Origin: Candidatus Bathyarchaeia archaeon
GTDB lineage: Archaea > Thermoproteota > Bathyarchaeia > TCS64
Length of the DNA: 64,000 nt
Direction: 5' to 3'
Assembly (NCBI GenBank): GCA_050014495.1
Contig: JBEKDF010000013.1
Location: forward strand, 1-64,000
In this document: piece after piece, positions 9,048 through 42,144 of the stretch
Numbering within the stretch: the first letter of the stretch is position 1
How the letters are laid out: each line of letters starts with the position of its first letter
Notes under the pieces: model-generated
The model's input: only the letters and a program-made list of their open reading frames with translations
What the model was told of the DNA's origin: nothing
Database searches by the model: none
Made by a program: the position numbers and the translations under genes

Positions 9048-9060
9048 AGAGTGTCTCACC

Positions 9061-17253: not shown

Positions 17254-17311
17254 GGGATAGGTCTTGATGTCAATTATCTTCGTCTTCTTGAACCTCCAGA
17301 AACTACTTATC

Positions 17312-17956: not shown

Positions 17957-17996
17957 AAATAGGAAATTTGTGATCGAGATATTAGATACTTCGCTG

Positions 17997-25744: not shown

Positions 25745-26965
25745 CTATTCTTCCAACAGGGCTACGGGTTCGCCATCCTTCAGATAGATTCGAGGGGTAT
25801 GAGGATTGAGGTGGTTGAGGACGCTATAGGTCATCCAACCAGCTGTCTCAGCGAACTTGCTCAATGTATTCTCACCGGTGCATCCAATTAACTCGATGAC
25901 GTCACCCTGCTTAGCCTCCAGACCTCGTAGATCGACTAAAATGTGATTGAGGCTTATCGAACCGATGGCACTTCGATATTTTCCGTCGACTAGGATGTGT
26001 GCATTATTAGCCATCTCACGGGGGACGCCATCGTAGAATCCAACGTGCACAGTACCAACGGGCATGTCCTCAGGAGCGACGCACTTACCCCAATAGGTGA
26101 CTGAATCGCCTCTACTGATGGTTTTCGTATACTCTATCCGCGCCTTCCAAGAGAGGGCTTGCCTCAGCTTCAAGCCTGAGGAGATGTCCTTAGGTTCTGG
26201 GTAGATACCGTAAAGACTCATGCCGGGTCGGATGATGTCGAGGTGTGCCTCTGGATTGTTGAGGGTCGCGTCGGTGCTGGCGAGGCTCAGTGAGCCGGGG
26301 TCGACACCGGCAGATCGAAGCTTGTCAGCCACGGCCCTGATTCTTGCTATCTGTTGCTCGTCATACTCCGGGTTCTGCATGAGTGTGCTCATGACCCCAT
26401 AGAGATTGATACAAGGAAGCGCCGCTATTTTCTCGATAAGGTCTGGCGCCTCCTCATACCAGACGCCAACACGTCTTAGACCAGTGTCAACCTTAACGAA
26501 AATGCTCGCGGTCTTATTCATCCTCTCCGCTGCCTCACTCAACTTCTCCGCTGCGTCAAGTGTGTAGACAACCTGAGTCACACCCTTCTCAACACTTATC
26601 TTATACTGATCTATTGTCCAGAGGGGGTCCATGTTTACAACTTGTAGGCCGGTGGCCTCCCTGATCTGGATTGCCTCACGAGTCTTGGCGACGAGGACAC
26701 GTTTGATACCATTGTCCTCGAGGTGAGTCGCTACTGGGAGGATGCCATGGCCATAGGCATTATTCTTGACACATGGCATCACCTCGGCCTTAGTGTGTCT
26801 CCTAATCTCAGTGAGGTTGTTTGTGACGGAATCGAGGTCGATCTCGAGCCAGCTTCCATAGCCCTCCATTCTTCTCCTTATTTCAGCGGGCTTGAGCTGC
26901 ATCGACCAGTAAGAGTGAGGCATAGCTCCTTCTTCTTGGCCATTCTGTATAAGCGTGTTGCTCAC
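25745..26965 (-). CDS. alr: Alanine racemase family (PLP, fold type III)
   Basis: WLEIDL, PLP-Lys motif VKNNAYGHG, KVDTGLRRVG, IRPGMSLYG, second base Tyr in VTYW, GFYDG. Confidence 0.88.
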   Translation of the reverse strand: MSNTLIQNGQEEGAMPHSYWSMQLKPAEIRRRMEGYGSWLEIDLDSVTNNLTEIRRHTKAEVMPCVKNNAYGHGILPVATHLEDNGIKRVLVAKTREAIQIREATGLQVVNMDPLWTIDQYKISVEKGVTQVVYTLDAAEKLSEAAERMNKTASIFVKVDTGLRRVGVWYEEAPDLIEKIAALPCINLYGVMSTLMQNPEYDEQQIARIRAVADKLRSAGVDPGSLSLASTDATLNNPEAHLDIIRPGMSLYGIYPEPKDISSGLKLRQALSWKARIEYTKTISRGDSVTYWGKCVAPEDMPVGTVHVGFYDGVPREMANNAHILVDGKYRSAIGSISLNHILVDLRGLEAKQGDVIELIGCTGENTLSKFAETAGWMTYSVLNHLNPHTPRIYLKDGEPVALLEE

Positions 26966-27114
26966 TCAAGAAAATATTCATTTTGTTACGTTATAGATCT
27001 CTAATAACGCCACAAGCACTGTTCTAGGGATTTACCTCTAAGAATTTTTGAGAGATATTCAATTTTATATTATAACCTCGCACAGTGTTTTAACCCTCAT
27101 TAATAGGTACACAG

Positions 27115-27558
27115 ATGTATAATAGGGGAAGACGAGACTCATCAGGTGTAGGTTTGTTGGGAAACAGACCCGCGGGAGCCAATAGAGCATTATCCAATGG
27201 ATCACTCTGTCTAGACAGGAATTGCGTTACATGCTGCCTCGAAACCGAGATGCCTCTGACCGAGGATGATATGAAGAGAATCGAGAAGCTAGGCTTCAAA
27301 CGATTAGAGTTCACAGTCGAGGTCGAGGGAGAGACCCGTCTCTTAAACGTTAACGGGACTTGTTTCTTTCTCAAAGACGGCAGATGCAAGATATACGTTG
27401 ACCGCCCGGAGGGTTGCAGGATTTACCCACTAGTCTACGACGTCGAAACACACAAGTTCGTCTATGACAAGGTGTGTCCACACTACTCCGAATTCAAGGC
27501 GACGAGAGAGGACAAAGATAGGCTTAAGCGACTCATAAGGAAGATAGAACATTTTTAG
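27115..27558 (+). CDS. YkgJ/FliB-family cysteine-cluster protein; integration target with altered C-terminus
   Basis: CxxCC, CFFL..C.IY..RP..CRIYP..CP motif. Contains the att core at 27535-27543. Start uncertain. Confidence 0.88.
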   Translation: MYNRGRRDSSGVGLLGNRPAGANRALSNGSLCLDRNCVTCCLETEMPLTEDDMKRIEKLGFKRLEFTVEVEGETRLLNVNGTCFFLKDGRCKIYVDRPEGCRIYPLVYDVETHKFVYDKVCPHYSEFKATREDKDRLKRLIRKIEHF

Positions 27559-27559
27559 G
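27534..27559. repeat. attL: spacer CATAAGGA plus element arm AGATAGAACATTTTTAGG
   Basis: Arm 27542-27559 matches the reverse complement of 37231-37248 at 15/18 positions. Confidence 0.85.
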
Positions 27560-27604
27560 TATAAACTTATAAAGAACTACAAACCAGTTAAACCCAGAAC
27601 AAAT

Positions 27605-28897
27605 ATGAGAACAACAGAGGAAAGGGAAACAGAAAACAGAAAAGTCGTTTACGACTTGATGATAAGCAAACAGGTTAAAGAGAACAATTCTAAAAAAATT
27701 GCAAAGGCTGTTAATCTATACTGCCTTTACAGAAACACAACACCTGAAAGCCTACTCTCAGAGGCAAAGGCTGATTTTGATAAAACTCAGAAAGAACTTG
27801 TAAACTATTACGAACAACTAAAAACAGAGGTTTTAGAAAGCACCGCCAAGGAAAGGGTTTACTCAAAAATCACAAGTTTCTATACTCACTCAGGTTTTAG
27901 GTTTCCTTTACATTTCACGCCAAAGATCAACAAGTTAAGCCAAGCTATACAGGCAGATCGTGATCACGAATTCCTAAAGTTGAACAAAGAAGAATCAGAA
28001 ACCTTTATCGATAAAACCGAATTAAGGAAATTTTTAAACTCACTATCACCAAGGGATCGATCCATCGGTTTGGCGATGCTTTCAAGTTCACAGGACTCAG
28101 GCGATATTTTCAGACTCACAGTAGGACAATTTAAAACAGGATGCAAAATGAATGGCACAGGGATAAGGTTTTTCTGGGATAACAACAGAGTTAAAACAAG
28201 TGAAAGGTTTCAAAGTTTTTTCAGTGTTGAGGCAACTGAGGCAGTAAATCAATACTTAGAAACTGAAAGGATCGGTGCTTTAGAAACAGAACCACTCTTT
28301 ACGATAAACGCAACTATTATAGACAAAAAAACAAAAAAGAAAATAACAAAAATAGTAGCGATGCAACCCGAACATCTACATAAGGCTTATTCATACACCG
28401 CCAAACAGATCGGTATAGTCTGGGATTCTGCCAAATTTCAGAATCCTTTTCGACCAAAGCGGTTAAGACACTATTTCTTAACTTGTGCATCAAAGGCAGG
28501 AATAGACGAAATATTCCAAAACATATTAACAGGACACACCTTAACAATAGGACAATCTTACGTTGAAAATAGGGCAGACTTAGAAATTATTTACAAAAGG
28601 ATCGAACCCTACCTTACTATTTTTGGAAACGTTGAACAACTAACCAAGGCAGTTAAGACCATCGCAGATGTTGAGGACATAGTAAAACAGCAAAACGACT
28701 TAATCAGAGACTTAAAGATCGACAGACTTGAGACAAAGGCAGACCTTGAGGAAATGAAAAAGAAAAACACAGCGTTAGATCAGACAGTCTCAATAATGAA
28801 AGACGAATTTGAAAAGGCTTACGCAGAATTTAGAGAAGAAAGGGATCGGATGAGAAAAGCAAACGAACTTAAAGATCAGAAAGAAGCACCACAATAA
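27605..28897 (+). CDS. Tyrosine recombinase/integrase with C-terminal coiled coil
   Basis: PRDRSIGLAMLSS, RVKT, PKRLRH, LTGH, QSY; adjacent to attL. Box I Arg position reads Asp (SSQDSGDI). Confidence 0.85.
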   Translation: MRTTEERETENRKVVYDLMISKQVKENNSKKIAKAVNLYCLYRNTTPESLLSEAKADFDKTQKELVNYYEQLKTEVLESTAKERVYSKITSFYTHSGFRFPLHFTPKINKLSQAIQADRDHEFLKLNKEESETFIDKTELRKFLNSLSPRDRSIGLAMLSSSQDSGDIFRLTVGQFKTGCKMNGTGIRFFWDNNRVKTSERFQSFFSVEATEAVNQYLETERIGALETEPLFTINATIIDKKTKKKITKIVAMQPEHLHKAYSYTAKQIGIVWDSAKFQNPFRPKRLRHYFLTCASKAGIDEIFQNILTGHTLTIGQSYVENRADLEIIYKRIEPYLTIFGNVEQLTKAVKTIADVEDIVKQQNDLIRDLKIDRLETKADLEEMKKKNTALDQTVSIMKDEFEKAYAEFREERDRMRKANELKDQKEAPQ

Positions 28898-28973
28898 ACC
28901 ACCAAACATATTTAAGGGTTAGTTTACAATATATATATTGATTAAATATGTGTGTAAAACACGGTGATCAAAA

Positions 28974-29447
28974 ATGGTAGGAAAAGGATTTCTAAGTAGT
29001 ATAAAACAAAAGGTTGAATATGCAAAGAAATCTTATCAAATTGCAAAGAAAGACTATACTATTGCACAACTGGAATACAACAAAGTAAAGCAAAAATACG
29101 AAAACGCTAAGGAAAAAGGATCAGCAAAAGAAGAAGAGTATAAAAAACAGTACATTAAAGTTAAGAAACAATTCGGTTTAGCAAAGGAAAAATATGGAAA
29201 AATTAAAGAAAAAACGCCGGATTGGATACTATCCAAGCCAAAACCAGCCAATAAACAACCAGAGAAACAACTAGCAAAGACGCCGCCGAATATGCAACAA
29301 GCAAAAACAAAACCGCCAATAAGCAAAGCGGATAAAGGTTTTGGCGAAGAACTTCCCAGCGACGGGTGGACCTTCGGACCCAAGTCTATCCCGGACTTCG
29401 GCAAAATAGCAGAGCCATTTGATAAGACTAAAAAGAAAAAGGATTGA
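28974..29447 (+). CDS. Lysine-rich hypothetical protein
   Basis: 157-aa ORF, GGTGA SD-like sequence upstream. Confidence 0.7.
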   Translation: MVGKGFLSSIKQKVEYAKKSYQIAKKDYTIAQLEYNKVKQKYENAKEKGSAKEEEYKKQYIKVKKQFGLAKEKYGKIKEKTPDWILSKPKPANKQPEKQLAKTPPNMQQAKTKPPISKADKGFGEELPSDGWTFGPKSIPDFGKIAEPFDKTKKKKD

Positions 29448-29692
29448 TATATATGGCATATAGAACAAAAATTGAAAAATTAACGACTGATCCGATGACG
29501 GCGGTAAGAAAGCATAATTTCGATATAGCAATGAAAAACTTTCAAGATCATTTAGCAAAGACACAATTAACAAAGAAGCAAATGATGGATATAAAGAACA
29601 AGAAAAGTATCAAATTACCAATTACTCATCTAGTGCCCACAAATAAGAAAATATCCAAAACTAAGAAGAAAAGCAAGAAGGTGAAAAAATGA
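29444..29692 (+). CDS. Small basic hypothetical protein
   Basis: 82-aa K-rich ORF coupled to its neighbours. Confidence 0.6.
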   Translation: MIYMAYRTKIEKLTTDPMTAVRKHNFDIAMKNFQDHLAKTQLTKKQMMDIKNKKSIKLPITHLVPTNKKISKTKKKSKKVKK

Positions 29693-29853
29693 TAGATTAT
29701 TCTAATATGTCTAAACAGGAATTGAGAAATTCAATACAGATAAAAATTAAAAATGTAAAACAGTTTAAGTCCGAATTGCGTGATGCAGAAAGAGACTTAG
29801 AAAGAGCAAGAAAAGCGTGCAAGAAAGCAAAGAATACAGAATCAATTTGGTAA
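29689..29853 (+). CDS. Small basic coiled-coil protein (54 aa), absent from the ORF track
   Basis: ATGA overlap with the previous stop, GGTGA upstream; MIDYSNMSKQELRNSIQIKIKNVKQFKSELRDAERDLERARKACKKAKNTESIW. Confidence 0.6.
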   Translation: MIDYSNMSKQELRNSIQIKIKNVKQFKSELRDAERDLERARKACKKAKNTESIW

Positions 29854-30118
29854 AATAAAGCCAAATATTTATAAGCAATCCATTTATATTATTTATTTGA
29901 GTAGAACCCAGTTAATTAACCTTCTCTGATTCTATTCAGTGTCCGCCAAGACAAAACCAAAAGGTGGATCGGGAAAAACAAACCCGATCTACCTAATTTT
30001 TATCACTATTGAAATGTATTGAAATATTGATATAGTATTTAAAGCGATATGTAGTCTCTGTGCATATCGATGTGGTAACATATATAAGGATTTGAATTAG
30101 TAATATATATTGATAATT

Positions 30119-30265
30119 ATGTCTCAAGAAGATTATCCAGAAGAAATTAGGTCTTATACAAGAACAGGTTGCCCTTTCAATACTAGTGATAGGCGTAAAT
30201 ATAATCACTGGTATCACTATAAAATCCGAAAGCCACAAATAGCCAATAAACAAAAGGTGGTATAA
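30119..30265 (+). CDS. Small hypothetical protein (48 aa), absent from the ORF track
   Basis: MSQEDYPEEIRSYTRTGCPFNTSDRRKYNHWYHYKIRKPQIANKQKVV; TATA-like TATATAA upstream. Confidence 0.5.
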   Translation: MSQEDYPEEIRSYTRTGCPFNTSDRRKYNHWYHYKIRKPQIANKQKVV

Positions 30266-30327
30266 AAACGGAAAAAGTAGATATTGAGATTGAAACACTC
30301 AAAAAACTTGAAATATCAAAACAAGAT

Positions 30328-30546
30328 ATGATAGAATTTGTTAAAGAGTGTCAAGGTACAGATGAACAAATTAATGATCACGTTTTACAAAATTTAACCT
30401 ATTTCACTATATATGGTAGTCATAAATGTGGCAAATTAGAACTGAATCAACCAAGAATGAAACTATTCAACGCTTTTTATAATTATAATCGCAAACTGGA
30501 AAATGAATTAAACAAACTCAGCAAACGATATCGCAGGATAGAATAG
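30328..30546 (+). CDS. Hypothetical protein
   Basis: 72-aa ORF; frame stays open upstream to ~30250. Confidence 0.55.
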   Translation: MIEFVKECQGTDEQINDHVLQNLTYFTIYGSHKCGKLELNQPRMKLFNAFYNYNRKLENELNKLSKRYRRIE

Positions 30547-30692
30547 TGAAAAAGGAAAAATAAAATTGTCTAATCCTATAAGAAAAATAGAAAAGAGATT
30601 AACCGATAGTGAGCTTGATAAGAAAATATCAGAGCTTTATAAGAGTGAAAAAATATTAAAGACTAGAAAACACTGGTTGTGAATATGAGAAA

Positions 30693-32510
30693 TTGGCGGA
30701 CAACGAAACAGCAAACAAAGGAAAAGAATTAGTAGACCAATTAGGTATTGAGTACAAGCCAATTACTACTAGTGAAATATTAAACGACGAAAAAAATACA
30801 ACCATCGGCGATGGCGATTATGATTCTATAAAACCCATAATATCCAAGTTTTCAATAAAAGAGATAACACAAAGTTATATCAATAATAAAATACCAAAAT
30901 TGGATTTCTTAGGCTTACTCAAATACAAAGAATATTCGATATATGATATAAATAAGATATTGAAAGACACGCAACCATTAAGAGATATAATGATTAATAA
31001 AGGTGGACAACCAACAGAGCCGGCGGCGGAGAAAGAGCAAATTCAGATAAGAAACGTTAGATGCATATCTACGGATCACTTTATAGCGGAAACAATAAGG
31101 CTAGACGGTACGAATATATTCCTAATATATCAACCAAACACAGATAGACAGTTTAAATGGACCACATCGCCATTTGTATTAAAGGACAGTATTACATATT
31201 TACCAGAAATTGACGAACCTTATAAACCTTATACTTTTACTAAAACCGAAATTGATAAACTAATTTCAAGTGAGATTGAGATACCAACCTTATATGAATT
31301 ATATGATCAAATTTTAAATATAATCAGAGATTATATTGTAGTCCCGGACGAATATCTATCATTAATAGCCAATACTATTTTAGTATCTTATGAGCAAGAA
31401 AAATTTGATGCTTTAGGATATTTAGCAATTCTAGGTATACCCGGTTGTGGAAAAACAAGAATAGGTGAAATTATATATTATATCGGATATAGACCATTAA
31501 TGGATATTGGTTTGAATTCGGCGAATGTATACGATTATATAGGCACGGAAACAGAAGGAAATTGTATAATTATAGCGGACGAAATTCAAACGAATGAAAA
31601 TGATCCCGATCTATTAAAAATATATCGTTCAGGATACAGAAAAGGTTTTAAAATTAGACGTATAACCGATCCAAGTAGTGCAACCAGATCACATAGATAT
31701 TATAATATATATAGCTTAAAAGTGTTTATTGGGTACTATATGCCACCTAAAGATGCATTAAGTGAAAGGTGTATTACCATAAATGTTATCAACGGTGATC
31801 CGGTTAAAGATATAATAAAGGATTCAGATCGACAAACATTTCAAGAATTGAAAAAGAGAATTCTCTTATCAAGAATGGCTCACTATTTCGATCCATTACC
31901 AATAGTAAAAACCGATATAAAAGGTAGAGATAAAGAAATATGGTTGCCTCAGTTAGTGGTTGCAGAAACTACAAATGCGAAAGAAAACATTAATAAACTA
32001 TTGAAAGAATACTTAACCGATATGGAGAATAGAAATAAGGCAGGAATAGATCGTAAAATTGTTGCGTGTGTATTAAGGCAAACAGAGTTTTATGAAACAC
32101 ACACGTTAAAAGTGAATTCTATTTGGAATTCTATATTATTAACATTATGCAAAGACCCTAAAATCCTACAATATTACCCAAATATAGACAGCTTTCAATA
32201 TGAATTAGGTGATACTAAGGTTTCGAAATGGTTAATAGGAAAGAAACTAAAACCAGTTTTATGCGGAAAAGACGATACTAAATATTTTAGTGATACAAGC
32301 ACAACAGAAAGAGTTTGGACGTTTGATAAGAAAATATTGGATCAGCTTGAGAAATCTTTAAAGATCACAGATACTGAGAAAGACGAATTTGTAATAGCCG
32401 ATCTTAACCAACCAGACCCACCGACGCCGCCAAAGCCAACATCGCCATCGCCGCCGCAGATCAGCCTTCCCAACACGCTAGAAAAGCTCTTTAATCCAAA
32501 TTCTCAATAA
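30693..32510 (+). CDS. AAA+ P-loop NTPase, putative replicative helicase/Rep of the element
   Basis: Walker A GIPGCGKT, Walker B IIADE, GYRKG, Arg-finger-like LSERC; Pro-rich tail; followed by the iteron region. Confidence 0.75.
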   Translation: MADNETANKGKELVDQLGIEYKPITTSEILNDEKNTTIGDGDYDSIKPIISKFSIKEITQSYINNKIPKLDFLGLLKYKEYSIYDINKILKDTQPLRDIMINKGGQPTEPAAEKEQIQIRNVRCISTDHFIAETIRLDGTNIFLIYQPNTDRQFKWTTSPFVLKDSITYLPEIDEPYKPYTFTKTEIDKLISSEIEIPTLYELYDQILNIIRDYIVVPDEYLSLIANTILVSYEQEKFDALGYLAILGIPGCGKTRIGEIIYYIGYRPLMDIGLNSANVYDYIGTETEGNCIIIADEIQTNENDPDLLKIYRSGYRKGFKIRRITDPSSATRSHRYYNIYSLKVFIGYYMPPKDALSERCITINVINGDPVKDIIKDSDRQTFQELKKRILLSRMAHYFDPLPIVKTDIKGRDKEIWLPQLVVAETTNAKENINKLLKEYLTDMENRNKAGIDRKIVACVLRQTEFYETHTLKVNSIWNSILLTLCKDPKILQYYPNIDSFQYELGDTKVSKWLIGKKLKPVLCGKDDTKYFSDTSTTERVWTFDKKILDQLEKSLKITDTEKDEFVIADLNQPDPPTPPKPTSPSPPQISLPNTLEKLFNPNSQ

Positions 32511-32535
32511 GGTTGTCTCAGATGACATAACCTTA

Positions 32536-32896
32536 AAATTTAGCCCTAATTAGGGTTAATTTTCAAGTTTACTTTCAGAAAAACTTTCTAACGTTTCTAA
32601 CGTTTCTAACGGAAGATTTGAGAGTATAAAAAAAAATATACAAAACCACAAAAAAACGTAAAAAGATACAAAAAGATATAAATATAAAAAACTCATATTT
32701 TACCCTCAAATAGGGTATATATCGGGTATATTATACCCTTTATATAAAAAGATCAGAATTATTTAAGTATAGAAGGACTCTGTTAGAAACGTTAGAGACT
32801 CTTTTTTTTTGTTTTTCCTTGTGGATCTTCCGTTAGAAACGTTAGAAACGTTAGAAAAATAAACTGAAAGTAAAACGCCAAAATACCCTAGGGTAT
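32536..32896. repeat. Putative replication origin: 50-bp inverted repeat with 3x 9-bp iterons, plus CCC-GGG palindromes around an AT-rich core
   Basis: 32568-32617 vs 32825-32874; (TTTCTAACG)x3; extra iteron copies 32782-32796; palindromes 32544-32555, 32701-32717, 32724-32738, 32883-32896. Confidence 0.85.
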
Positions 32897-33008
32897 AGTG
32901 AATAACTCAATCTGAAAAAAGGTTTGCTCAATACAGCTCAGATGAATAGAGCTTGTATGTAATTACATTCAAGAAACATTATTAAGCATTTCTAAACGTA
33001 TATACATT

Positions 33009-33338
33009 ATGGGTATTAATTGGGAAAGCGAAACATCCAACAGAAAATATGTATGGGAAAAGAACAACTATCCTATATTTGCAACCTACATCCGAAGTCT
33101 AGGAAAATTGGATAACGCGCCATTCTGTGTTTATAAACATCCGAAAGAAAAGTTTATCGAAAAAAATATTTGTCTTCAATGTTGGTATCTAGGTTTAAAA
33201 TGCATCTATTGGGTATATGCTCACGATAGGAAAAGTCCGCAGATAGTAGATGCTAAACAGCATCACATAAAACATTTAAATATTAAAGAAAAGGAAGAAA
33301 GAGAAAAATGTCTGCTAACTCAACAACTGAAACAATAA
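33009..33338 (+). CDS. Hypothetical protein with Cys/His motifs
   Basis: 109-aa ORF, CVYKH..CLQC..C. Confidence 0.65.
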   Translation: MGINWESETSNRKYVWEKNNYPIFATYIRSLGKLDNAPFCVYKHPKEKFIEKNICLQCWYLGLKCIYWVYAHDRKSPQIVDAKQHHIKHLNIKEKEEREKCLLTQQLKQ

Positions 33339-33538
33339 AAAATATAACTACAATTTCGGGTATAACCACTAGGACTTTTACCAATATAACAATAACACAA
33401 GTGCCAATTTATGAATGGGATAATACCAAATTCTTTCTATTCATAATTTCAATAGTGATCCTATATTTTGTGGCGGGTTATATTCAGAGACATAGAGTTA
33501 GCCAAAGTAGCTGGGAAAAGCCAAACTGGAAGTTTTAA
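33308..33538 (+). CDS. Small single-TM protein with Thr-rich N-terminus and three N-x-T sequons
   Basis: NST, NIT, NIT; TM FFLFIISIVILYFVAGYI; basic C-terminus. Confidence 0.65.
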   Translation: MSANSTTETIKNITTISGITTRTFTNITITQVPIYEWDNTKFFLFIISIVILYFVAGYIQRHRVSQSSWEKPNWKF

Positions 33539-33627
33539 CTATTACAATATAACAGATTTCAATAGTTAATAGTTAATAGTTTTCTCAATAGAATAAACAT
33601 TATTACAGTAGTAATATTAATATACTT

Positions 33628-33996
33628 ATGCAATCCAATTATGATATGGTTAAATCAAATAATCAATCTAGGTCTTATACTAGAAGAAATTTAGGCTCAA
33701 GCAAGTCTGATAATTATTTCATTGAGTACTATAAAAACATAGCAAAGCCAAAGCGTGGTATCGTAATGAGCAGGGAAGAATATTTGGCTTGTTGCTCATT
33801 TAAGACACTTCATAAACAGTTATGCAAACTCTATCATCAGAAAATAGATATTACAGAGCGGATGGATAAACTGAATATTGAAATTGATTCGGTTATAAAA
33901 ATTATTGAGAAAAATCCTAATATCCCACTCTATTCAATGTATACATTAAAAAATGAAGAATGGAATATGGGTGAGAGTGAAGTAAAAGTTGTATAG
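33628..33996 (+). CDS. Hypothetical protein
   Basis: 122-aa ORF overlapping the next gene. Confidence 0.6.
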   Translation: MQSNYDMVKSNNQSRSYTRRNLGSSKSDNYFIEYYKNIAKPKRGIVMSREEYLACCSFKTLHKQLCKLYHQKIDITERMDKLNIEIDSVIKIIEKNPNIPLYSMYTLKNEEWNMGESEVKVV

Positions 33997-34660
33997 AAAA
34001 GAAACACAATTTGAGCCACAAACCGAATCAACTCAGCAACAGCAGAAAATAAATATACCATATATAATAGAGCAACAATTAATAAAAATCAGCTCGAGTG
34101 GTTGGAAAGGCGATGAAGCTGGGTATAGTAATGCAATTCAAACTTTATTAAAAGATTTACCAATTGAGAATCAAAAACATATAGAATCACGTAAGGACGA
34201 ATATATAACAAGTGTAGAGAAACCAGAGTGGAAGTATTGCTCAGGTAGAAAGATGGGTACATTAGAAAATCCATTATTTTGCAACCGAAAGGGTGTGGAT
34301 TGGCGGTGGAGTGCTGATATCAATAATGGACAACCCATAAGAATAAGCCCAATAATTGAAGAAGTTGAAGAAACAAACTATCAAACACTGTACGGTCTTA
34401 TAATGGAAGAAATGCAGAGTATGGGTCTACTTTTCAAGATAGAGCCACACGATAGAGTTGGCAAAAAGATAAAATATCCGCCTACACCGCTTATCACACT
34501 AAAAGATGGCTCTGAAGTCCGTGTCTTAATGCAAAAGGATGTCCCGCCCGAAATAGCCTTACTACAAAAGCAAGCAAATTCTAATGAAACGGATGAAGAT
34601 AATTCTACTGAAGAATATGAAGATAGTGAAGAAATGGACTTAGACGAAGATGTCCAATAA
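33989..34660 (+). CDS. Hypothetical protein with acidic C-terminal tail
   Basis: 223-aa ORF overlapping the ATPase start. Confidence 0.7.
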   Translation: MYRKETQFEPQTESTQQQQKINIPYIIEQQLIKISSSGWKGDEAGYSNAIQTLLKDLPIENQKHIESRKDEYITSVEKPEWKYCSGRKMGTLENPLFCNRKGVDWRWSADINNGQPIRISPIIEEVEETNYQTLYGLIMEEMQSMGLLFKIEPHDRVGKKIKYPPTPLITLKDGSEVRVLMQKDVPPEIALLQKQANSNETDEDNSTEEYEDSEEMDLDEDVQ

Positions 34661-35705
34661 TTTAGAATATGCTGATCCGCCAGCGGATTATCACGGTTCA
34701 CATCCTTGGGCTAATTGGCACAATTTCGCATATGAAAAGGGTGGAAATTTTAATGCAAATGTATTGAATTTTATTCAACGAAAAAGAAACTCTCTAGAAG
34801 CCCTAATAATTTGTGCAAGTGGTGCCGCCGGCTCTGGTAAAAGTTATTGGGTTTTGAGAATTTGTGAGATCCTAGATCCTAAATTCTCAGTGGATCAGGT
34901 TGCCTTCGGTCCAGATGAATTTTTGGCACTTATAGGTCCAGACACCAAACTGAAAATGGGTCAATGTATAGTTTTAGATGAAAGTCAGTGGGGTGCAAAC
35001 TCAAGAAGTTGGTTCGATAAAGCCCAGCAGGACTTGATGTTACAGCTTGAAGCGATCCGATCAAAAGGGTTTGTCATATGGATCGTCTCTCTTTCTGAAG
35101 CATCACTAGATTTGATCGCTAGAAATTATGTCCTTTCCGCCAAAGCTCATTTATTAAAAAGAGCACATGCACGATTCTATTCGTACCAGATGTCTCCATT
35201 CAGCGTAAAACCCTATCCAAAAATTGTTAGTCGGGACTGTGAGATGGAATTACCGGGTGTTGAGTCGTGTCAATTTTTTTCGTGCTTAAAATGTCCATAT
35301 TCAGGTGTACAAAAAACTCTCTGGAAAAAGCGATCTCACTGGAAAGAAAATGGCGATATAATTTGTCAAAATTTGAGATCAAAATATGAGCGTAAAAAGA
35401 AGGAATTTGTCGAATTGATGGCTAATCAGTCGATTGAAGGTAGAGCGGCAGAAAAAGAGATTACAATAAGCAAGAAAATCTCTGTGGATGATATAGTAAA
35501 GCTACTTAGAGAAAATCCTAATAGACTTATAATGAGTAACCAAGGTAATATTGGAAAAGCAAGTGCTTTATTGGTTGTTAGAGAAATATATCCAAGCGTA
35601 AGTGAGAGAAGCATAACAAACGCAATAGGAATACTCAATCAAGATGTCCTTTTCTGCTCTAAATTGAGTTTAAAGAAGACAGTGCCTATTCCAGAGACAG
35701 GATAA
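34650..35705 (+). CDS. P-loop ATPase, possibly viral morphogenesis/packaging type, with Cys cluster
   Basis: Walker A GAAGSGKS, Walker B IVLDE, CQFFSCLKC..C. Confidence 0.75.
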   Translation: MSNNLEYADPPADYHGSHPWANWHNFAYEKGGNFNANVLNFIQRKRNSLEALIICASGAAGSGKSYWVLRICEILDPKFSVDQVAFGPDEFLALIGPDTKLKMGQCIVLDESQWGANSRSWFDKAQQDLMLQLEAIRSKGFVIWIVSLSEASLDLIARNYVLSAKAHLLKRAHARFYSYQMSPFSVKPYPKIVSRDCEMELPGVESCQFFSCLKCPYSGVQKTLWKKRSHWKENGDIICQNLRSKYERKKKEFVELMANQSIEGRAAEKEITISKKISVDDIVKLLRENPNRLIMSNQGNIGKASALLVVREIYPSVSERSITNAIGILNQDVLFCSKLSLKKTVPIPETG

Positions 35706-35987
35706 ACCATATATCTATATTTCTAGACAGTAGAAGCCACACAAACCATACAGGTGGATGTGCATCCTTTTCCTAGTATTGAAGAAACCTTACATATAAG
35801 TTGTTATGAGTTTTCAACAATATTTGTAATGAATATAACAGAAAAAACAAGAAAAAAGAGAAAAGAGTTGCGCACCTTTTCACTTATATTATTATATGGC
35901 GACAGGTATATTGATCAGGTATCGCAACTCTTTCGTGCTAGGGTTTAATAGTGGACAATATCACTATATATACCGTAGGGTCAAAGG

Positions 35988-36707
35988 ATGTCTGAAAACG
36001 TTATAATAGAACAATCCGCTATGGATGCTATACTAAAACAACTAGAAGTACATGCAAAAAAGGTATCCAAGCACAATAAATGGACAGATCAACATTTGGA
36101 TGAATACTTGTTGAAATATCGTTCTACTTTAGCTATGTTCTATTATTCTGGACTCAGATGTTCGGAAGTTATCGGAGACATCGGTCCTAAGTGGAAAGTA
36201 TTAAGCAACAATGGTAGGATACTTAGCCGAAACCTTCAGCTTTCAAAAGAATGGTGGAAGTTGCCTGAATCAGATGGTATCTGGGTTTGGAAGTCTAGAC
36301 CTTCAGCAAAGGGAATACTTAAAGAAGACTTGGAGATTAAGCAAGGCACACTATACATCTACAGTAAACCCTTAAAGGGTGGACTAAGAGAAAGTCCCAT
36401 AGAGATAAGCACAGCTTTACCTTATGTTGATTACATCATACAGGCGCGGAATTTAACAGATGCTGGTGATAGAGTATTTAGACTTAGGCGTTCAGCATTA
36501 TGGCAAACACTACGCAAACTAGTTGGTTATGGTTCACATAGATTCAGAAAGTCTAGAGTTAATTGGTTCGCTTCGCAACCAGATGTTAATCTAAAGGATA
36601 TGCTTCAGTGGTTTGGTTGGCGTCGTTCAGCAACTGCCGACTTTTATATTGTAAAGGCTAAAAGTGCAACAGACATGAAAAATATACTAAATAGGGTGGT
36701 TTTATGA
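35988..36707 (+). CDS. Compact tyrosine recombinase (Xer-like catalytic domain)
   Basis: Full catalytic set: YSGLRCSE, LKGG, HRFR, FGW, FY. Confidence 0.88.
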   Translation: MSENVIIEQSAMDAILKQLEVHAKKVSKHNKWTDQHLDEYLLKYRSTLAMFYYSGLRCSEVIGDIGPKWKVLSNNGRILSRNLQLSKEWWKLPESDGIWVWKSRPSAKGILKEDLEIKQGTLYIYSKPLKGGLRESPIEISTALPYVDYIIQARNLTDAGDRVFRLRRSALWQTLRKLVGYGSHRFRKSRVNWFASQPDVNLKDMLQWFGWRRSATADFYIVKAKSATDMKNILNRVVL

Positions 36708-36749
36708 TCATTTACCTATACTTATTTTATATAAAGAAGTGGTCATCAA

Positions 36750-36953
36750 TTGAGTAGCGAGCATATTTTTAAAGGAATTTACCTTAGAGTTAATTTCAAT
36801 ACTGAGCAACAGTATAAGGAATTCATTCGATACCTTCAGCACGCCAAAGTTAAGCTATCCTATACTTCACCTAAAAGTGATGGCGTCGGTGGATACTTCG
36901 GATTCATTTCGTTTGAAGGATCAAAATATTACATAGAGCCTTTTGAAGTCTAG
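36750..36953 (+). CDS. Small hypothetical protein
   Basis: 67-aa ORF, TTTATATA TATA-like box just upstream. Confidence 0.55.
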   Translation: MSSEHIFKGIYLRVNFNTEQQYKEFIRYLQHAKVKLSYTSPKSDGVGGYFGFISFEGSKYYIEPFEV

Positions 36954-37230
36954 TGAGTAGAGATATAAATTACTTTTAAAAAGAGTTTTTAGCAAACCGT
37001 ATCAGCTAGATCATCTATATATGTAATTTATTAAAAAGTGAATATTGATCGCGATCAATATACAGAAAAACTTGAAACAGTACTGCCATCTGCGATGGAG
37101 GTGTATCACTTGATACACCCCTATACCTTGTTATCATTTGATAACAGGGTTAAAGCTACTAAGCCACTTAGTAGGACGCAAATGGTTTTCTCTGTTTTAG
37201 TGTCCGACTTATAGAAATGGCATAAAATCA

Positions 37231-37301
37231 CTTAAAAATGTACTTTCTTATAAGGAAGTTGGATAGGGAAGCTGCGAAGAGGATGTAGGCGTTAAATCTT
37301 A
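37231..37301. repeat. attR arm and core, plus first displaced copy of the YkgJ 3' end
   Basis: Arm CTTAAAAATGTACTTTCT (37231-37248); 37250-37301 equals 42050-42101 with 2 mismatches and encodes IRKLDREAAKRM*. Confidence 0.9.
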
Positions 37302-37588
37302 GCTAAATAACAGTTTCGAATCTATGAATTAATACCTCGCTGGGTTTGTTTTTCACCCTAATTATTAATTATAGTATACGGAACCGCGCGCGCCTCGAAA
37401 CGTCTACATGTGTGCGCTAAACTGGCTGATGCCTGAAAGGGTCGGCGACAAGAGAGCCTCGATAGGAGCCTATCCAATTGGAGGTGAATATGTTATCGAC
37501 ATCGACTCTTATCTCAACTATAAGAAACACAGTCACAACCCACGTCTGGGTTCAAGGCGCACGTGAAATAGTTCTTCCCCAAGTTCAG

Positions 37589-39133
37589 CTATTGGGTGGG
37601 TAGCCTTATTGTGAAGGTCGTTCCCTCGCCAAGCTTGGACACGAAGCCCACTTTTCCCCCGTGACCCTCAACCACCATCTTAACGAAGTATAGTCCAAGC
37701 CCCAAGCCACCCTTCTTTGTTGTGAATAGTGGCTCGAAGATATGCTTGGAGGCTTCCTCACTTATACCCACGCCAGTGTCACCGACCTCCATGACCACCT
37801 CCTCGCCCACACGCCTAGCTGAAACTGTGAGCTTAACCCCCTCGGGCATCGCCTCGTAGCCGTTCCGCACAAGGTTATCCAATACCCTACGCATCAGCTC
37901 AGGGTCAAGAGACACATCCTCCAGTCCCCCTCTCAGCTGCATGTCCAGACTTATGTTCTCGGGTTTAGGCACACCATCAACAACTTCCTTGACGAGGGAC
38001 GATAAATCCACCTTCCGCTTCACTACCTTCACATCCCGTGTCCCTTCCCTAAACCCCTCGATCATGTGTAGAGACCTCTCCGCGTTGCTGGAGATTAACA
38101 ACAGCATCCTATCTGAGAGCTCCTGCTTCTTCCTAGCAATCTCCGCGGCTTGGCTGATGGCTATGAGCGGCCCACGCAGATCGTGCGCCACCGTTGCCCC
38201 AATCCTACTAATAGTATCCATCTGCTGTATGCTACGTAGCCTCTCATCGCTCTCACGCAACTTAGATTCCTCCTCCTCAACCAATCCCTCAAGCCTGTAA
38301 GCCCGCTCCTGCACCCTCTCCCTTGCAACAGCCAACTCTGTGTTCAACGTCTGAAGACCTTCATTCGTCTTGTTGAGCTCCTTATTGGCCGCCGCCGACA
38401 CCTCTTCAGCTCTCTTCCGTTGTGTGATGTCATCGAATATAGCGACGAAGTACCCCTTTTCCGGGCTGTAGGCGGAGATGGATAGCCATATGCTGAGGGG
38501 TTTGAGGAATAGCTCGAAGCTCGCAGGCACTCCAGTTGAGGAGACTCTACCATAAATATCGATGAGCTCAGGTTTTCCCTCTTTGATTCCCGGTATTGCT
38601 TCAGATACCTTTCTTCCAATTACTTCCTCCCTCTTCAAGCCGGTTAACCTCTCGAAGGAGTCATTGACTTCGAGGTAGGTGAAGTCCTCTGGTTTGCCAT
38701 TTTGGTCTTGTATCATCTTACAGTAGGCGAAACCGTTCATCATGTTGGAGAAGAGAGTGCGGTACCTTTCCTCGCTTACCTTTAACGCATTCTCTGCCCG
38801 ACTCTTCTCCACAGCGTGCCTGATCCTTCTTGCGAGGACTTTGAAGTGTGCTAGCTCCATCTCCTTCTTGACGTAGTCGTCAGCCCCAGCGGTGAAGACG
38901 TCAGAGGCTATCTCATCACTCCCTCGCCCAGTGTAGATTATGAAGGGGATCGTCCTCGTCTTCTTGATCTCGGTGCAGAACTTGGTGCCATCCATCCCCG
39001 GCATCTGGTAGTCGGAGACGATGCAGTCGAAGGGCTGATCCGATAGGAGTTTCAGCGCGTCGGATGGTATTTGCATCGTTGTTACTGTTAGGGAGGGGTC
39101 ATCGGACTCGAGGCTAAGCTTCGTGAGTTCCAA
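37589..39133 (-). CDS. REC-PAS-histidine kinase hybrid
   Basis: SDYQMPGMDG receiver, PAS, AHDLRGP H-box, N/G1/F/G2 boxes. In-frame IRVLLVDDEE lies upstream of the called start. Confidence 0.92.
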   Translation of the reverse strand: MELTKLSLESDDPSLTVTTMQIPSDALKLLSDQPFDCIVSDYQMPGMDGTKFCTEIKKTRTIPFIIYTGRGSDEIASDVFTAGADDYVKKEMELAHFKVLARRIRHAVEKSRAENALKVSEERYRTLFSNMMNGFAYCKMIQDQNGKPEDFTYLEVNDSFERLTGLKREEVIGRKVSEAIPGIKEGKPELIDIYGRVSSTGVPASFELFLKPLSIWLSISAYSPEKGYFVAIFDDITQRKRAEEVSAAANKELNKTNEGLQTLNTELAVARERVQERAYRLEGLVEEEESKLRESDERLRSIQQMDTISRIGATVAHDLRGPLIAISQAAEIARKKQELSDRMLLLISSNAERSLHMIEGFREGTRDVKVVKRKVDLSSLVKEVVDGVPKPENISLDMQLRGGLEDVSLDPELMRRVLDNLVRNGYEAMPEGVKLTVSARRVGEEVVMEVGDTGVGISEEASKHIFEPLFTTKKGGLGLGLYFVKMVVEGHGGKVGFVSKLGEGTTFTIRLPTQ

Positions 39134-39336
39134 CGAGGACTCTTCGTCGTCGACGAGAAGGACACGGATGGCATCGGTGCTATTCTTCCCAGTTTGTTTC
39201 TGTAAGGAGGCTCACCGAATATTTAGAACAGTTACGCAGTCTTAGTTAACTCTTCGGATGGAGATTCTCAATTACCTTGGTTCGCATTGTGGGAGATTCA
39301 TAGTTAATAGCTTCGAAATAAGCATCTCGAAGGCGC

Positions 39337-40056
39337 GCGCGCAACGGGGTCACTTCAGTGTTATTCGTACAGCGTGGATTCACTGGGGAGGAGGATATCT
39401 TCTCCGGTGATGGCAACTTTCTTGAGGTTTTCTGCCCTGGCAAGGATCGACTGCTCGAATGGATTGACAATTTGGGGAATCTGTACGACATTTCTCTGAC
39501 GAACATAAAGAAGTTCTGTGTTGGTTCTCCGATTCAGGCTGCAGCTGATGTTATGACTTTGCTTGTTCAAGAATATCATCTGACTGCTGATCAGGTCAAG
39601 GGTGTTGATGTTCATCTTCCACCGAGTGGTGCAAGGACGGTTAACAACCGCACCATGCCAGATATTAATTGCCAGTACATAATGACGGTGATTCTACTTG
39701 ATGGAAAACTAACTTTTGAAGCAGCCCACTCATATGAGAGGATGACCGATCCTAAAGTACGAGAAGTGCAGTCCCTCATTAACCTAATTGGCGATCCAAA
39801 ATTTATTGGGCAAGAAGAGAAACGACCTGGAATGGTGCGGGTCCACCTGGTAGATGGTCGTACTGTGGAGAAACTCGTCTCATCGGTTCGAGGAACTGCA
39901 GATAATCCTATGACTCGAAGCGAAATCGAGATAAAATCTATGGACCTCCTTCAGGGTATTCTCGGCAAGGATAAAGCGAACTCTCTAATAGGAACCATCT
40001 GGGAACTGGAGAAGGTGCGGTCGATGCGAGAGCTGCGACCATTACTCTCAGTTTAA
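39337..40056 (+). pseudogene. C-terminal half of an MmgE/PrpD-family protein, 5'-truncated
   Basis: Starts at ARNGVTS..RGFTG (mid-protein motif), IKKFCVG, RGTADNPMT; in-frame stop at 39319-39321 just upstream. Confidence 0.8.
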
Positions 40057-40094
40057 GTATATTTCACGTGCGCGCGCTTCGTGCTTTTTATCGC

Positions 40095-41699
40095 TTATCT
40101 GAAGAATTTCTGCAAGCCGTTGCTTGAAATGATGTATTCGCGCATCAAATCATCCCGAACCGATTTTTTGGTGTTTCCATAGAAGTTCGACCTCAACCTA
40201 AAAGTGTCGCCCCATTCCATGAATACGGGATTGTCCAGCGAGGTGGCAGGCCAATATGAAAGATCGCCTCCATTGGGATTTCCTGTCGCAACGAAATTGG
40301 CCCAATAGGATGAGCAATTTTCAGCAATCTTGAAATCCAGCTCGGTCCAGTCCCTCTGCTGAGGAATATCACGCAGAGACTTGAACACATACCACAATTC
40401 ACTGCTGTGCCAAGCCCATCGGATCTCGGCTTCGCGGCCCGGTGCCCAATGAGAGAAATAGTAGGGATACAGACTGCTGACCGGATTCAATTGGTTCAGC
40501 ATCAATGCCACGATCAGGTTTTGAGTGCCGCCAGTTTCGCTGCGCAGACGCAGGCTTTCCATGGTGGCAGCAAAATCATCGGTTGTGTTGTACAACTCGG
40601 AAAAATTGTATTTGTCAAACAGCTCCTGATAGGTTTTCTTTGAGGATTCCATGAAAATACTCTTGGTGATGATTGAAAATTCCCCGTTCCCTTCGCCACA
40701 GTTGACACCGAACAGGATATTTTTGCCTTTGAGAGCCCCTTTCTGTTTAAAGAAATCGATCGGGCTATGGGTCATGGCGTAGCCGTCCACCATCGAAGTG
40801 AAACCTTTGCCATAAACCTCGCTTTTGGGGGTGTTCTCATTCACAAAGGCACTGGTCGGCAAAGCCCGCAGCTCAGTCACGCTCAGACCGGCATAGCCCT
40901 TGTCCTTCAAATACGTATCGCACGCAGTTTCCGTCTGATCAAGCGTGGATCTTCTGCTTAACGCACTAAAACTGCTGTCCATGATGGCACGGTCAAATAA
41001 ATCGGTCGCCAGGGGTGATGTGAGAATGGAGCAAACTGCACCGGCGCCTGCGGATTGCCCGGCAATGGTGACCCGTGTAGGATCACCACCAAACATCTTG
41101 ATATTTTTCCGAACCCATTCTAGGCTTTTGATCTGATCCAGCAGGCCGTAGTTGCCTGATGTGCCGGTTGGTGATGCGGCGGAAAGATCTTTTGTTGCCA
41201 GATAGCCGAAAACGCCCAGACGATATCCGACCGAAACGACTATGATTCCCTTTTTACAAAGCTCTTCCGGATTGAATTCCGGTTCATAGCTGTAACCATG
41301 CATACTTGCACCGCCATGAAACCATACCAGTACCGGGCAATTTTCATCCGGGGTTTGGGCGGGTGTTGCGACATTCAGGTAGATACAGTCTTCGCTCATG
41401 ACTGGTTTCTTATCTTTATACTCATAGTAAAACTCTGGTCCCCACCAATCTGTGGTTGATAGAATCTGCACGGCCATAGGTGCATAAGTATCACAGGCTC
41501 GAACACCGTCCCAAGGTTCTGGATCTGCAGGAGCGGCCCACCGCAAATCACCAACCGGTGGTTTGGCGTAGGGCACGCCTTTATAAATCGTTATGCCGTT
41601 TTCAACGTAAAAATCACCCGATACTTTGCCAAAGACAGTCTGGACAATTCGCGTGCGCGTGGGGTCTATTTCCTGCTCGGAATATTGTTTCCCCATCAT
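40095..41699 (-). CDS. Carboxylesterase type B (pNB-esterase-like)
   Basis: GVPYAKPPVGDLRW, SEDCIYLNV, GNYGLLDQ, nucleophile GQSAG, WHSSE. Confidence 0.93.
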   Translation of the reverse strand: MMGKQYSEQEIDPTRTRIVQTVFGKVSGDFYVENGITIYKGVPYAKPPVGDLRWAAPADPEPWDGVRACDTYAPMAVQILSTTDWWGPEFYYEYKDKKPVMSEDCIYLNVATPAQTPDENCPVLVWFHGGASMHGYSYEPEFNPEELCKKGIIVVSVGYRLGVFGYLATKDLSAASPTGTSGNYGLLDQIKSLEWVRKNIKMFGGDPTRVTIAGQSAGAGAVCSILTSPLATDLFDRAIMDSSFSALSRRSTLDQTETACDTYLKDKGYAGLSVTELRALPTSAFVNENTPKSEVYGKGFTSMVDGYAMTHSPIDFFKQKGALKGKNILFGVNCGEGNGEFSIITKSIFMESSKKTYQELFDKYNFSELYNTTDDFAATMESLRLRSETGGTQNLIVALMLNQLNPVSSLYPYYFSHWAPGREAEIRWAWHSSELWYVFKSLRDIPQQRDWTELDFKIAENCSSYWANFVATGNPNGGDLSYWPATSLDNPVFMEWGDTFRLRSNFYGNTKKSVRDDLMREYIISSNGLQKFFR

Positions 41700-42049
41700 T
41701 GTTCAGGTAGCATCTCATTTTAGGCTCATTTAAGTATTATTTTCGTCTAAAAAGCGCGCGCTTCGGGCAGAGCGTGGGTGAAGAATACCATTTTCTCCTC
41801 GGTGGCGATGAATGCGCGCGCGCATTCAGGGATGTGGAAAGTAATAACCAATTAAAAAGAAGAGAACCGCAGTAGTGATGCAAATTAAACTGGTAAATAT
41901 AAGCATTTTTCTCCGCTCCTTTCTAAGCCTCTCAAAATCTTGCTTTAACTTTTCAACAGATCGACTCAGTGCTTGATCATCGTTACTAAGACCCATGGAT
42001 AAGAAGAGGATGTAATCCGCTTTAATGAATTTCGCGCCAATGCGCGCGC

Positions 42050-42101
42050 ATAAGGAAGTTGGATAGGGAAGCCGCGAAGAGGATGTAGGCGCTAAATCTT
42101 A
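42050..42101. repeat. Second (probably original chromosomal) YkgJ 3' end; distal att
   Basis: ATA AGG AAG TTG GAT AGG GAA GCC GCG AAG AGG ATG TAG; preceded by palindrome ATGCGCGCGCAT. Confidence 0.88.
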
Positions 42102-42144
42102 TCTAGCTAATACACACACATTTGGTTTATCCGGGTGTTTTTTC

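Follow-up and report, generated by a model that had tools for sequence, protein, structure and literature searches.

An active 9.7-kb circular element integrates into the last codons of a CxxCxxCC protein gene in a Bathyarchaeia archaeon, beside a probable remnant of an earlier insertion

Results

A low-GC element supplies a new end to a CxxCxxCC protein gene

We analyzed a 64,000-nucleotide stretch of DNA from a peat-dwelling Candidatus Bathyarchaeia archaeon (assembly GCA_050014495.1, contig JBEKDF010000013.1, positions 1 to 64,000; hereafter the window), in which the last codons of a CxxCxxCC (YkgJ-like) protein gene meet a low-GC element, here called element B, and element B is followed by a shorter stretch, here called segment A. 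Both lie between two genes that are conserved neighbors of the target gene in relatives, and the locus as a whole is made up of the following features (GC, guanine plus cytosine; att, attachment site; attL and attR, left and right att of the integrated element).

25745..26965, minus strand: alanine racemase gene (alr), conserved left neighbor of the target gene (Pfam Ala_racemase_N and Ala_racemase_C; syntenic in relatives)
27115..27558, plus strand: CxxCxxCC (YkgJ-like) gene in its hybrid form, C-terminal tail replaced (PF03692; alignment with 17 homologues)
27535..27543, plus strand: left core copy (9-bp crossover core ATAAGGAAG), which forms attL of element B and specifies residues I-R-K in the host protein
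27544..37258, plus strand: element B, integrative and low in GC, plasmid- or virus-like, 9,715 bp with the right core copy counted in
37250..37310, plus strand: repeat copy 1, whose initial 9 nt form the right core of element B and whose whole 61 nt are the left att of segment A
37311..42049, no strand assigned: segment A, a putative island remnant of 4.7 kb with host-like GC, between the 61-bp repeat copies
42050..42110, plus strand: repeat copy 2, which comprises the native 3′ end of the CxxCxxCC gene and the first bases of the native spacer that precedes lctP
42145..43767, plus strand: L-lactate permease gene lctP, conserved right neighbor (PF02652, E 1.5e-45; synteny in relatives)

The target protein matches Pfam PF03692 with an E value of 1e-12 and 49 bits (cut-off 23 bits), and seven cysteines (C37, C40, C41, C83, C91, C101, and C121) are invariant across 18 sequences of the family, which places it in the CxxCxxCC/YkgJ group. 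The product of 27115–27558 ends in KRLIRKIEHF, with the stop codon TAG at 27556–27558; the ending IEHF agrees with a preliminary description of this DNA. Residues 1 to 143 of this hybrid protein are host-derived, while the final four codons (IEHF) and the stop are supplied by element B. The same description had placed an alternative gene end twice downstream, and this is what we find: a direct repeat of 61 nt with 92% identity occupies 37250–37310 and 42050–42110, each copy headed by the same nine bases ATAAGGAAG and each encoding IRKLDREAAKRM followed by a stop in the frame that these bases set. Over the initial 52 nt, the copies differ at two positions only, a synonymous GCT/GCC change at 37273/42073 and a T/C change past the stop at 37292/42092. 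Repeat copy 1 holds an element-derived version of the last 12 codons of the gene plus the stop (37250–37288).

No match to the repeat beyond 15 nt was found elsewhere in the 3.1-Mb genome, which puts the 52-nt repeat far outside what chance would give. This would not hold for the 9-nt core by itself, which is validated by junction contigs that share exactly nine letters. The base composition follows the same borders: GC is about 0.50 in the flanks, 0.28 to 0.40 exactly between 27.5 and 37.3 kb, and host-like again from 37.3 to 42.0 kb.

The replaced residues sit outside the Pfam domain, in a tail with an L-x-x-E pattern that continues in 16 of 19 homologues. In a structure model of low confidence (mean predicted local distance difference test score, pLDDT, 63.5), residues 131 to 146 form a terminal helix; at this confidence the model does not allow a verdict on what the tail swap does. 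Since the window holds no tRNA gene, intron-aware mode included, and positions 26500–43000 give no Rfam match at E ≤ 1, the target is the protein gene, and a hidden RNA gene as the true target is ruled out. A single-protein scan of the public genome-contig collection with the target protein returned no close relatives.

Element B exists as a free circle, and its excision restores the native gene end

A scan of metagenome contigs with the integrase alignment identified two contigs (L059 and L060) that carry a 100% identical integrase and in which window position 37258 is joined to 27532, with the core inside the overlap. The L059 contig is 9,838 bp long with a 123-bp terminal overlap and therefore represents a closed circle of 9,715 bp; once re-permuted, this circle differs from the integrated copy at 3 of 9,715 positions. 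Words of element B occur in 24 peat/wetland runs, 12 of which hold at least half of the words.

We aligned the Logan contigs of four runs (X1, X5, X6, and X9) to positions 26000–43500. In run X5, a 7,602-bp contig with a depth of 6.4 joins 27534 directly to 37250, skipping exactly 9,715 bp with 255 letters on its shorter side, and spans the gene, the restored native end, and segment A. Because of this contig, the regeneration of the native protein by excision, which had been predicted from the window alone, is an observation. The same joint was found in run X1 at a depth of 2.4, with 21 letters on the shorter side. The reciprocal circle joint, from 37249 back to 27535, is present in runs X1, X5, and X6, and the element-free joint and the circle joint each share nine letters. 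In run X9, neither joint was seen; these contigs drop rare variants, and hence this is no evidence of absence. Run X5 contains element B only as the circle and the host locus only as the B-free allele, and the contigs of element B have a depth of 12 to 24 versus 6.4 for the host flanks. In run X1, the contigs end at the core on all four arms; because such breaks require two continuations per side, the integrated and free forms coexist in this run.

Altogether, attL and attR lie in the window, the att of the circle (attP) was recovered in L059, L060, X1, X5, and X6, the joint of the element-free chromosome (attB type) in X5 and X1, and empty sites in six relatives, as expected of a site-specific integrative element. 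The earlier claim that a 9.7-kb element had inserted at the core without restoring the gene end is borne out by these attP circles. Element B is an active circular element of 9,715 bp, and its borders, core, circle, element-free allele, and recombinase family have all been established.

The circle carries a palindromic core site

In the circle, attP is a 20+6+20 inverted repeat that holds the core, with arms ACTTAAAAATGTACTTTCTT and AAGATAGAACATTTTTAGGT and the spacer ATAAGG. With 17 of 20 pairs, this palindrome is the single best over all 9,715 positions of the circle (runner-up 15 of 20), and attP has the architecture of a simple tyrosine-recombinase core site. The attP and the host site are unrelated outside the nine shared bases. 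The free circle already contains one copy of the 9-bp repeat, which identifies the repeat as an att core rather than a target-site duplication.

Two other assignments were considered and discarded. A casposon or transposon does not fit, as no Cas1 or transposase domain was detected in the 12 element B open reading frames (ORFs) scanned with Pfam and PHROGs. An SSV-type (partitioning) integrase does not fit either, as the integrase gene described below, int430, is an intact ORF of 430 codons with the core 61 nt upstream of its start.

Relatives lack the IEHF end and, at six of ten same-genus loci, have lctP next to the gene

Matches to the target protein occur in 29 of 41 genomes searched, its own genome counted, and in all 17 other genomes of the same genus. 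The preliminary description had staked its reading on orthologues that end like the downstream copies and adjoin lctP, and the comparison came out in its favor. None of the 19 best homologues ends in IEHF; the closest, in G003, ends in LIRKLEREAAKRM, and other same-genus orthologues have the tails LIRKLEREAVKKM, LIRRLEREAAKKA, LIHKLDREAAKKS, and LIKKLDREAANK. Synteny was compared at 10 same-genus loci of at least 59% identity. In six of them (G002, G003, G005, G015, G016, and G017), lctP begins about 80 nt downstream of the gene, and in G003, G015, and G016 the genes alr, CxxCxxCC, and lctP directly succeed one another in this order.

Repeat copy 2 at 42050 runs on into sequence that can be aligned with the gene-lctP spacer of relatives, while copy 1 departs from it after about 37301–37310. 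At both mismatches copy 1 is the odd one out, and copy 2 agrees with the relatives. Spacer continuity and the mismatches therefore identify copy 2 as the native gene end and copy 1 as the foreign copy. The exact core ATAAGGAAG was found in none of the 10 orthologues of other species.

The locus is variable within the genus. G008 is without lctP; in G011, other genes fill about 4.5 kb, and lctP is reduced to its 3′ end. In G012, the orthologue has an AT-rich substitute gene end (LITKLDKESSKRYC followed by a stop) and then about 3 kb of foreign DNA, with lctP missing; the arrangement resembles a further old insertion at this site. The stretch (L021, G012:C1, 1650–4770) includes a gene for a 451-aa secreted protein and one that we take, from its N-terminal motif, to be DUF3800-like. 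A candidate for the displaced native gene end in G012, a 20-nt match at L021:9376, was rejected as a chance match since it lies inside a coding region.

Segment A has the features of a decayed element

Segment A, between the two repeat copies, holds the following genes.

37375–37563, plus strand: AEP-primase-like gene fragment that shares 80% identity across 54 aa with a PF01896-positive ORF of contig C53
37589–39133, minus strand, frame open to 39211: hybrid histidine kinase (Pfam), with a 71%-identical paralogue elsewhere in the genome
39322–40056, plus strand: MmgE/PrpD gene, 5′-truncated (Pfam)
40095–41699, minus strand: carboxylesterase (Pfam), found in 0 of 40 relatives
41829–42047, minus strand: small membrane ORF at the right end of segment A

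Given the flanking repeats, the foreign gene-end copy on the left, and the adjacent replication-gene relic, segment A is most likely the decayed remnant of an earlier element whose attP restored the gene end at the same place, as far as sequence features allow a judgment. The identity block of segment A begins at the same base as the core of element B, and the distribution of host-like and foreign bases would put the crossover of segment A within the first 23 nt of the block, which makes it likely that the same site was used twice.

The primase on contig C53 is a full-length relative of the segment A fragment. It is encoded in a low-GC stretch of G000 (C53, about 4000–9500; L093) that holds the AEP-primase-like ORF (PF01896) together with an ORF with a weak integrase match, and this stretch is probably another mobile element. 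The histidine-kinase frame (37592–39211, minus strand) stays open for 26 codons upstream of its first ATG/GTG/TTG, and the receiver domain is complete only in the longer frame; the gene may use another start codon or be 5′-damaged. The small membrane gene (41823–42037) has copies with 89 to 91% nucleotide identity at G000 C55:5738–5952 and in G011:C25 (other species).

The palindrome GCGCGCGC is common in the host genome as a whole, with 512 sites versus about 47 expected (about 11-fold over-represented), AT-rich surroundings, and 34 clusters of at least four sites in 5 kb. The richness of segment A in this palindrome, described below, fits long residence or an origin in the host lineage.

Element B encodes two tyrosine recombinases and a module shared with a tRNA-targeting relative

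The genes and the non-coding region of element B considered here are as follows.

27605..28897, plus strand: int430, tyrosine recombinase whose C-terminal tail is a coiled coil and whose gene start lies 61 nt from the core; probable integrase
30693..32510, plus strand: rep605, P-loop protein, probably a replication helicase (ESM Atlas structure neighbors)
32511..33008, no strand assigned: non-coding repeat region, candidate replication origin, with inverted clusters of the 9-nt unit TTTCTAACG and 69-nt inverted arms
33628..36707, plus strand: conserved module o122, o223, atp351, o64, rec239, in the same order in the G016:C20 element
34650–35705, plus strand: atp351, P-loop ATPase, Zot/AAA-like by Atlas and a weak PHROG match, which are leads only
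35988–36707, plus strand: rec239, small tyrosine recombinase within the module

Eight of 10 int430 homologues carry a precomputed PF00589 match, and R150, K197, K285, R288, H311, and Y319 are invariant in the family (10 sequences). The family profile matches archaeal XerA (5hxy) with an E value of 4.3e-7; the catalytic residues align with the XerA motifs LRDR, P-H-x-L-R-H, G-H, and Y, such that K285, R288, H311, and Y319 fall on the H-x-x-R, H, and Y positions. Of 400 other Bathyarchaeia genomes searched, 15 carry homologues with 31 to 36% identity, all outside the genus of the host; homologues were also found on 32 further metagenome contigs. At the seven genome loci examined, a GC step lies at the integrase gene in five, about 1 kb beyond it in a sixth (L035), and the remaining locus (L033) has uniformly low GC. 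In the G263 element, a small Cys-rich gene, conserved in the same-genus genomes G339 and G165, has its stop codon at the integrase-side border; the far border was looked for and not found. The element itself (L107, G263:C11, about 6900–18375) is a low-GC stretch of about 11 kb with the int430-family integrase at its edge. In a search for att sites at 14 metagenome loci and in the G263 element, the flank next to the integrase shared exact repeats of 11 to 13 nt with the remaining sequence, a length that chance would also give. The 54 int430-family integrase loci, many of them short, yielded no tRNA gene, whether intron-free or intron-bearing. Single-protein scans of viral contigs with int430 and rep605 and of plasmids with rep605 returned nothing.

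The second recombinase, rec239, has 57 relatives, in which R57, K130, H184, and Y220 are invariant and R187 is nearly so. It is without a Pfam match of its own, and 13 of 20 aligned relatives match PF00589 (best E 3.4e-8). The rec239 profile matches the XerC-like structure 4a8e (E 5.9e-6) and XerD (E 1e-5), and this family match together with the catalytic residues makes rec239 a tyrosine recombinase. A 78-aa C-terminal rec239-like relic, 70% identical, was found on contig C3 of G000 (L095:8631–8867), where it adjoins a DNA methyltransferase gene just past an aminotransferase gene; it is probably what remains of another related element.

For rep605, no Pfam, PHROG, or NCBIfam match was found, and its ESM Atlas neighbors are DUF3631-type domains of phage and plasmid primase-helicases, which we treat as a lead only. 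The repeats at 32511–33008 look like a replication origin from their arrangement. Over 117 aa, atp351 is 33% identical to a DnaA-like protein from Haloferax virus LSV-48N, which is likewise a lead only. The AlphaFold model of o223 is poor (pLDDT 61), and Foldseek gave no match at E ≤ 0.001 against PDB and BFVD.

A related low-GC element of about 8 kb is present in G016, a genome of the same genus. It keeps the five module genes in the same order with 42 to 87% amino-acid identity, and it carries a different integrase (PF00589, E 3e-16) and a DUF3987-like protein. Its site is a tRNA-Leu(UAA) gene that contains an intron, and a second copy of the 3′ half of this gene lies at the other end of the element (L106, G016:C20, 6300–6409 and 14532–14644); the default tRNA tool missed the gene, which was found by intron-aware ARAGORN. 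Since the G016 element combines the rec239 module with another integrase and a tRNA-Leu site, the choice of target is linked to the integrase module. Because the target follows the integrase module and not rec239, we assign the integration of element B to int430, which is most probably the integrase that acts at the core. The protein rec239 probably has another role, e.g., resolving multimers.

Discussion

An active element beside a same-site remnant

The results reported above lead us to favor, with good confidence, the view that an active element B integrates in the last codons of the CxxCxxCC gene beside segment A as the decayed remnant of a same-site element. In this view, element B integrates by tyrosine-recombinase site-specific recombination, in which strand exchange inside the 9-bp core joins host I-R-K to the element codons IEHF and a stop. 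Insertion thereby displaces the native tail LDREAAKRM, and excision reverses the swap. Integration is most probably driven by int430, the acting recombinase and the cleavage positions being deduced. An earlier element would have entered the same gene end, bringing a restoring copy of the 3′ end, and would then have decayed to segment A, after which element B would have used the left att site of the remnant.

Several observations weigh against parts of this reading. On the side of element B, int430 itself matches PF00589 with an E value of 4.9e-4 and 20.4 bits, below the cut-off of 27.1, and it has a Lys (K285) at the first-His position, as does the int430 family throughout the alignment, where most tyrosine recombinases have His. 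The host attB is without comparable symmetry, as no 20+6+20 register reaches 11 of 20 pairs. As to a plasmid or virus nature, no capsid-like or virion protein was recognized by Pfam or PHROG, nor was there a fold match for o223. None of the Logan contigs shown bridges the integrated junctions, which therefore rest on the 69-kb contig of the window and on the four-arm graph argument from run X1. On the side of segment A, no recombinase or integrase relic was found with Pfam (E ≤ 1) in 15 stop-to-stop frames, these being 15 of the 45 frames of at least 45 aa, with the remaining 30 mostly inside or overlapping the kinase and esterase genes. The GC of segment A is host-like, and six of the seven GCGCGCGC sites in the window lie within it, one in each intergenic gap (37386, 39333, 40070, 41754, 41814, and 42042; the seventh is at 114). 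Lastly, no joint that skips segment A was seen in the four runs, whose contigs drop rare variants.

The points on segment A would also be met if this segment had never been mobile and the 61-bp duplication had arisen by recombination with a rearranged relative, or by duplication plus gene shuffling. The missing integrase, the host-like GC, the kinase paralogue with 71% identity elsewhere in the genome, and the six host-wide GCGCGCGC sites, one per intergenic gap, are in keeping with this, as is the variability of the spot within the genus, where lctP has been lost or replaced in G008, G011, and G012. We nevertheless consider it unlikely, as a gene-end copy that diverges at a synonymous site and then gives way to unrelated DNA is what attP-borne restoration classically leaves behind, the primase relic lies about 65 nt from the left repeat and has its full-length relative in the low-GC stretch of C53, and the esterase occurs in none of the 40 relatives.

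The assignment of the integrase has its own competitor, namely that rec239 acts at the ATAAGGAAG core and int430 has another function. Both recombinase genes flank attP in the circle, with rec239 ending about 540 nt before the core; rec239 has the complete catalytic set, and the metagenome contig L077 carries homologues of both recombinases. The G016 relative argues against this, since it keeps rec239 (56% identical) together with a tRNA-Leu target and has a different integrase at its att site. The borders of other elements point to int430 as well, with the GC step at the int430-homologue gene in five of seven loci (the sixth, L035, about 1 kb beyond) and one border fixed against same-genus genomes, while a rec239 homologue was found at 1 of 52 related integrase loci (two circle contigs excluded; many loci short). 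A role of rec239 as the integrase is thus improbable, and we retain int430 as the probable integrase.

The order of events could also have been the reverse: element B would have arrived first, in the native gene end, and its right-hand att would later have taken up segment A or the intact ancestor of that segment. The right att of element B still holds the full 61-bp target from the core onward, and because the identity block of segment A starts exactly at the left edge of the element B core, the final structure would be identical; the B-free allele could then come from excision of element B out of such an array. This order is very unlikely in our judgment. Element B is still mobile, with 3 differences from its circle in 9,715 positions, segment A is without an integrase, contains pseudogenes, and has host-like GC, and the host contig of run X5 has segment A without element B, for which the simplest account is that segment A is fixed and element B a recent visitor. 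That segment A is degraded, lies in a host contig where element B is seen only as a circle, and faces an element nearly identical to its free form favors segment A as the earlier arrival, an order that is plausible rather than proven.

An assembly artefact, in which a solely circular element B was wrongly threaded into the host contig, would suit the X1 contigs that stop at the core and the presence of only the circle and the B-free allele in X5, and is extremely unlikely given that a 9-bp repeat is too short for a false join in a k-mer assembler, that the X1 contigs break on all four core arms and so imply two continuations per side, and that the int430 protein is recorded on nine contigs, the longest being this 69-kb one.

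Relation to described elements

Phage 21 and e14, which integrate in icd, are bacterial prophages that sit in the 3′ end of a protein gene and carry a substitute gene end. Segment A resembles them in that its left repeat is a substitute end that encodes the same protein with a synonymous change, whereas element B is without a substitute end and its host is an archaeon. Archaeal integrases of the non-partitioning (pNOB8) type differ from those of the SSV type in that integration leaves the integrase gene unbroken, with attP at a position outside the gene. The int430 gene is likewise intact after integration, with attP outside it. The pNOB8-type members described mostly target tRNA genes, with att sites of 29 to 69 bp and restoration of the tRNA (She et al., cited in PMC6563490); element B departs from these in having a 9-bp core in a protein gene whose end is not restored.

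The preliminary description had held a protein-coding target to be unusual in archaea. This was overstated, since 14 of 68 mapped integrated elements of Thaumarchaeota sit in the 3′-distal parts of protein genes according to the survey of Krupovic et al. 2019 (PMC6563490). The same source notes tandem re-use of integration sites and describes NitEve-E2, an element in a Zn-finger protein gene that replaces the last eight nucleotides and the stop with its own stop, has a 13-bp att, and was verified against the empty site of a relative. By that account, NitEve-E2 and element B are alike in that a tyrosine recombinase integrates them into the 3′-distal part of a gene for a small Cys-rich protein, that the att is short (13 bp versus 9 bp), that the element supplies a new stop, and that an empty site is known in relatives; the tandem re-use of a site noted in the same survey has a likely counterpart here. 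They differ in that element B is found in a different archaeal class and an unrelated target gene and replaces nine residues by four. Relative to what is reported of NitEve-E2 there, element B is also distinct in that its circle and element-free allele are seen directly in natural samples and that a probable remnant of the restoring type lies at the same site.

Among Asgard archaea, the Yucahu-i element of Atabeyarchaeia is described as 10.9 kb long with an 11-bp att and a tyrosine integrase as the first gene (Valentin-Alvarado et al. 2024, PMC11529989). That paper also reports that integrated, excised, and circular forms of wetland Asgard elements coexist, with the circle several-fold more abundant than the host, and states that the Atabeyarchaeia integrases are related to those of Bathyarchaeia. 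Element B shares with Yucahu-i, as presented there, a size of about 10 kb, the integrase gene in first position, a short att, and coexisting forms in wetland metagenomes. The att of Yucahu-i is an AT-rich motif, and the description of the element in that source mentions no rewriting of a protein gene; element B, for its part, is without a Holliday-junction resolvase and has two recombinases. For Bathyarchaeia, a published virus survey includes proviruses with integrases, with no attachment sites given in its account of them (PMC10848311), and among the literature matches listed, no title or abstract dealt with small integrative plasmid-like elements of this group.

Integration at the 3′ end of protein genes, stops supplied by the element, and tandem arrays have thus already been described, by the sources cited above, for Thaumarchaeota and Asgard archaea, and the present case extends rather than changes known biology.

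Significance

A broader idea, speculative and quite unlikely as a whole, is that element B, the G016 element, and L077 represent an undescribed family of small Bathyarchaeia plasmids or capsid-less viruses, in which a conserved module (o122, o223, Zot-like ATPase, and small recombinase) is combined with exchangeable integrases that retarget the element from tRNA to protein genes, and the reversible swap of the C-terminal helix, not being neutral, might act as an on/off or tuning switch for the CxxCxxCC protein at the population level, or might place the integrase under host read-through.

Bathyarchaeia are an abundant, uncultured lineage of sediment and peat, and element B is one of the few mobile elements of this group whose borders, att core, circle, and element-free allele are fixed to the base. 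It yields an attP/attB pair and a candidate integrase of an uncharacterized subfamily (430 aa, Lys-for-His variant, coiled-coil tail), which together might become a genetic tool for a group that is without any. Natural populations here provide a case in which a conserved host protein has its tail edited, reversibly, by a mobile element.

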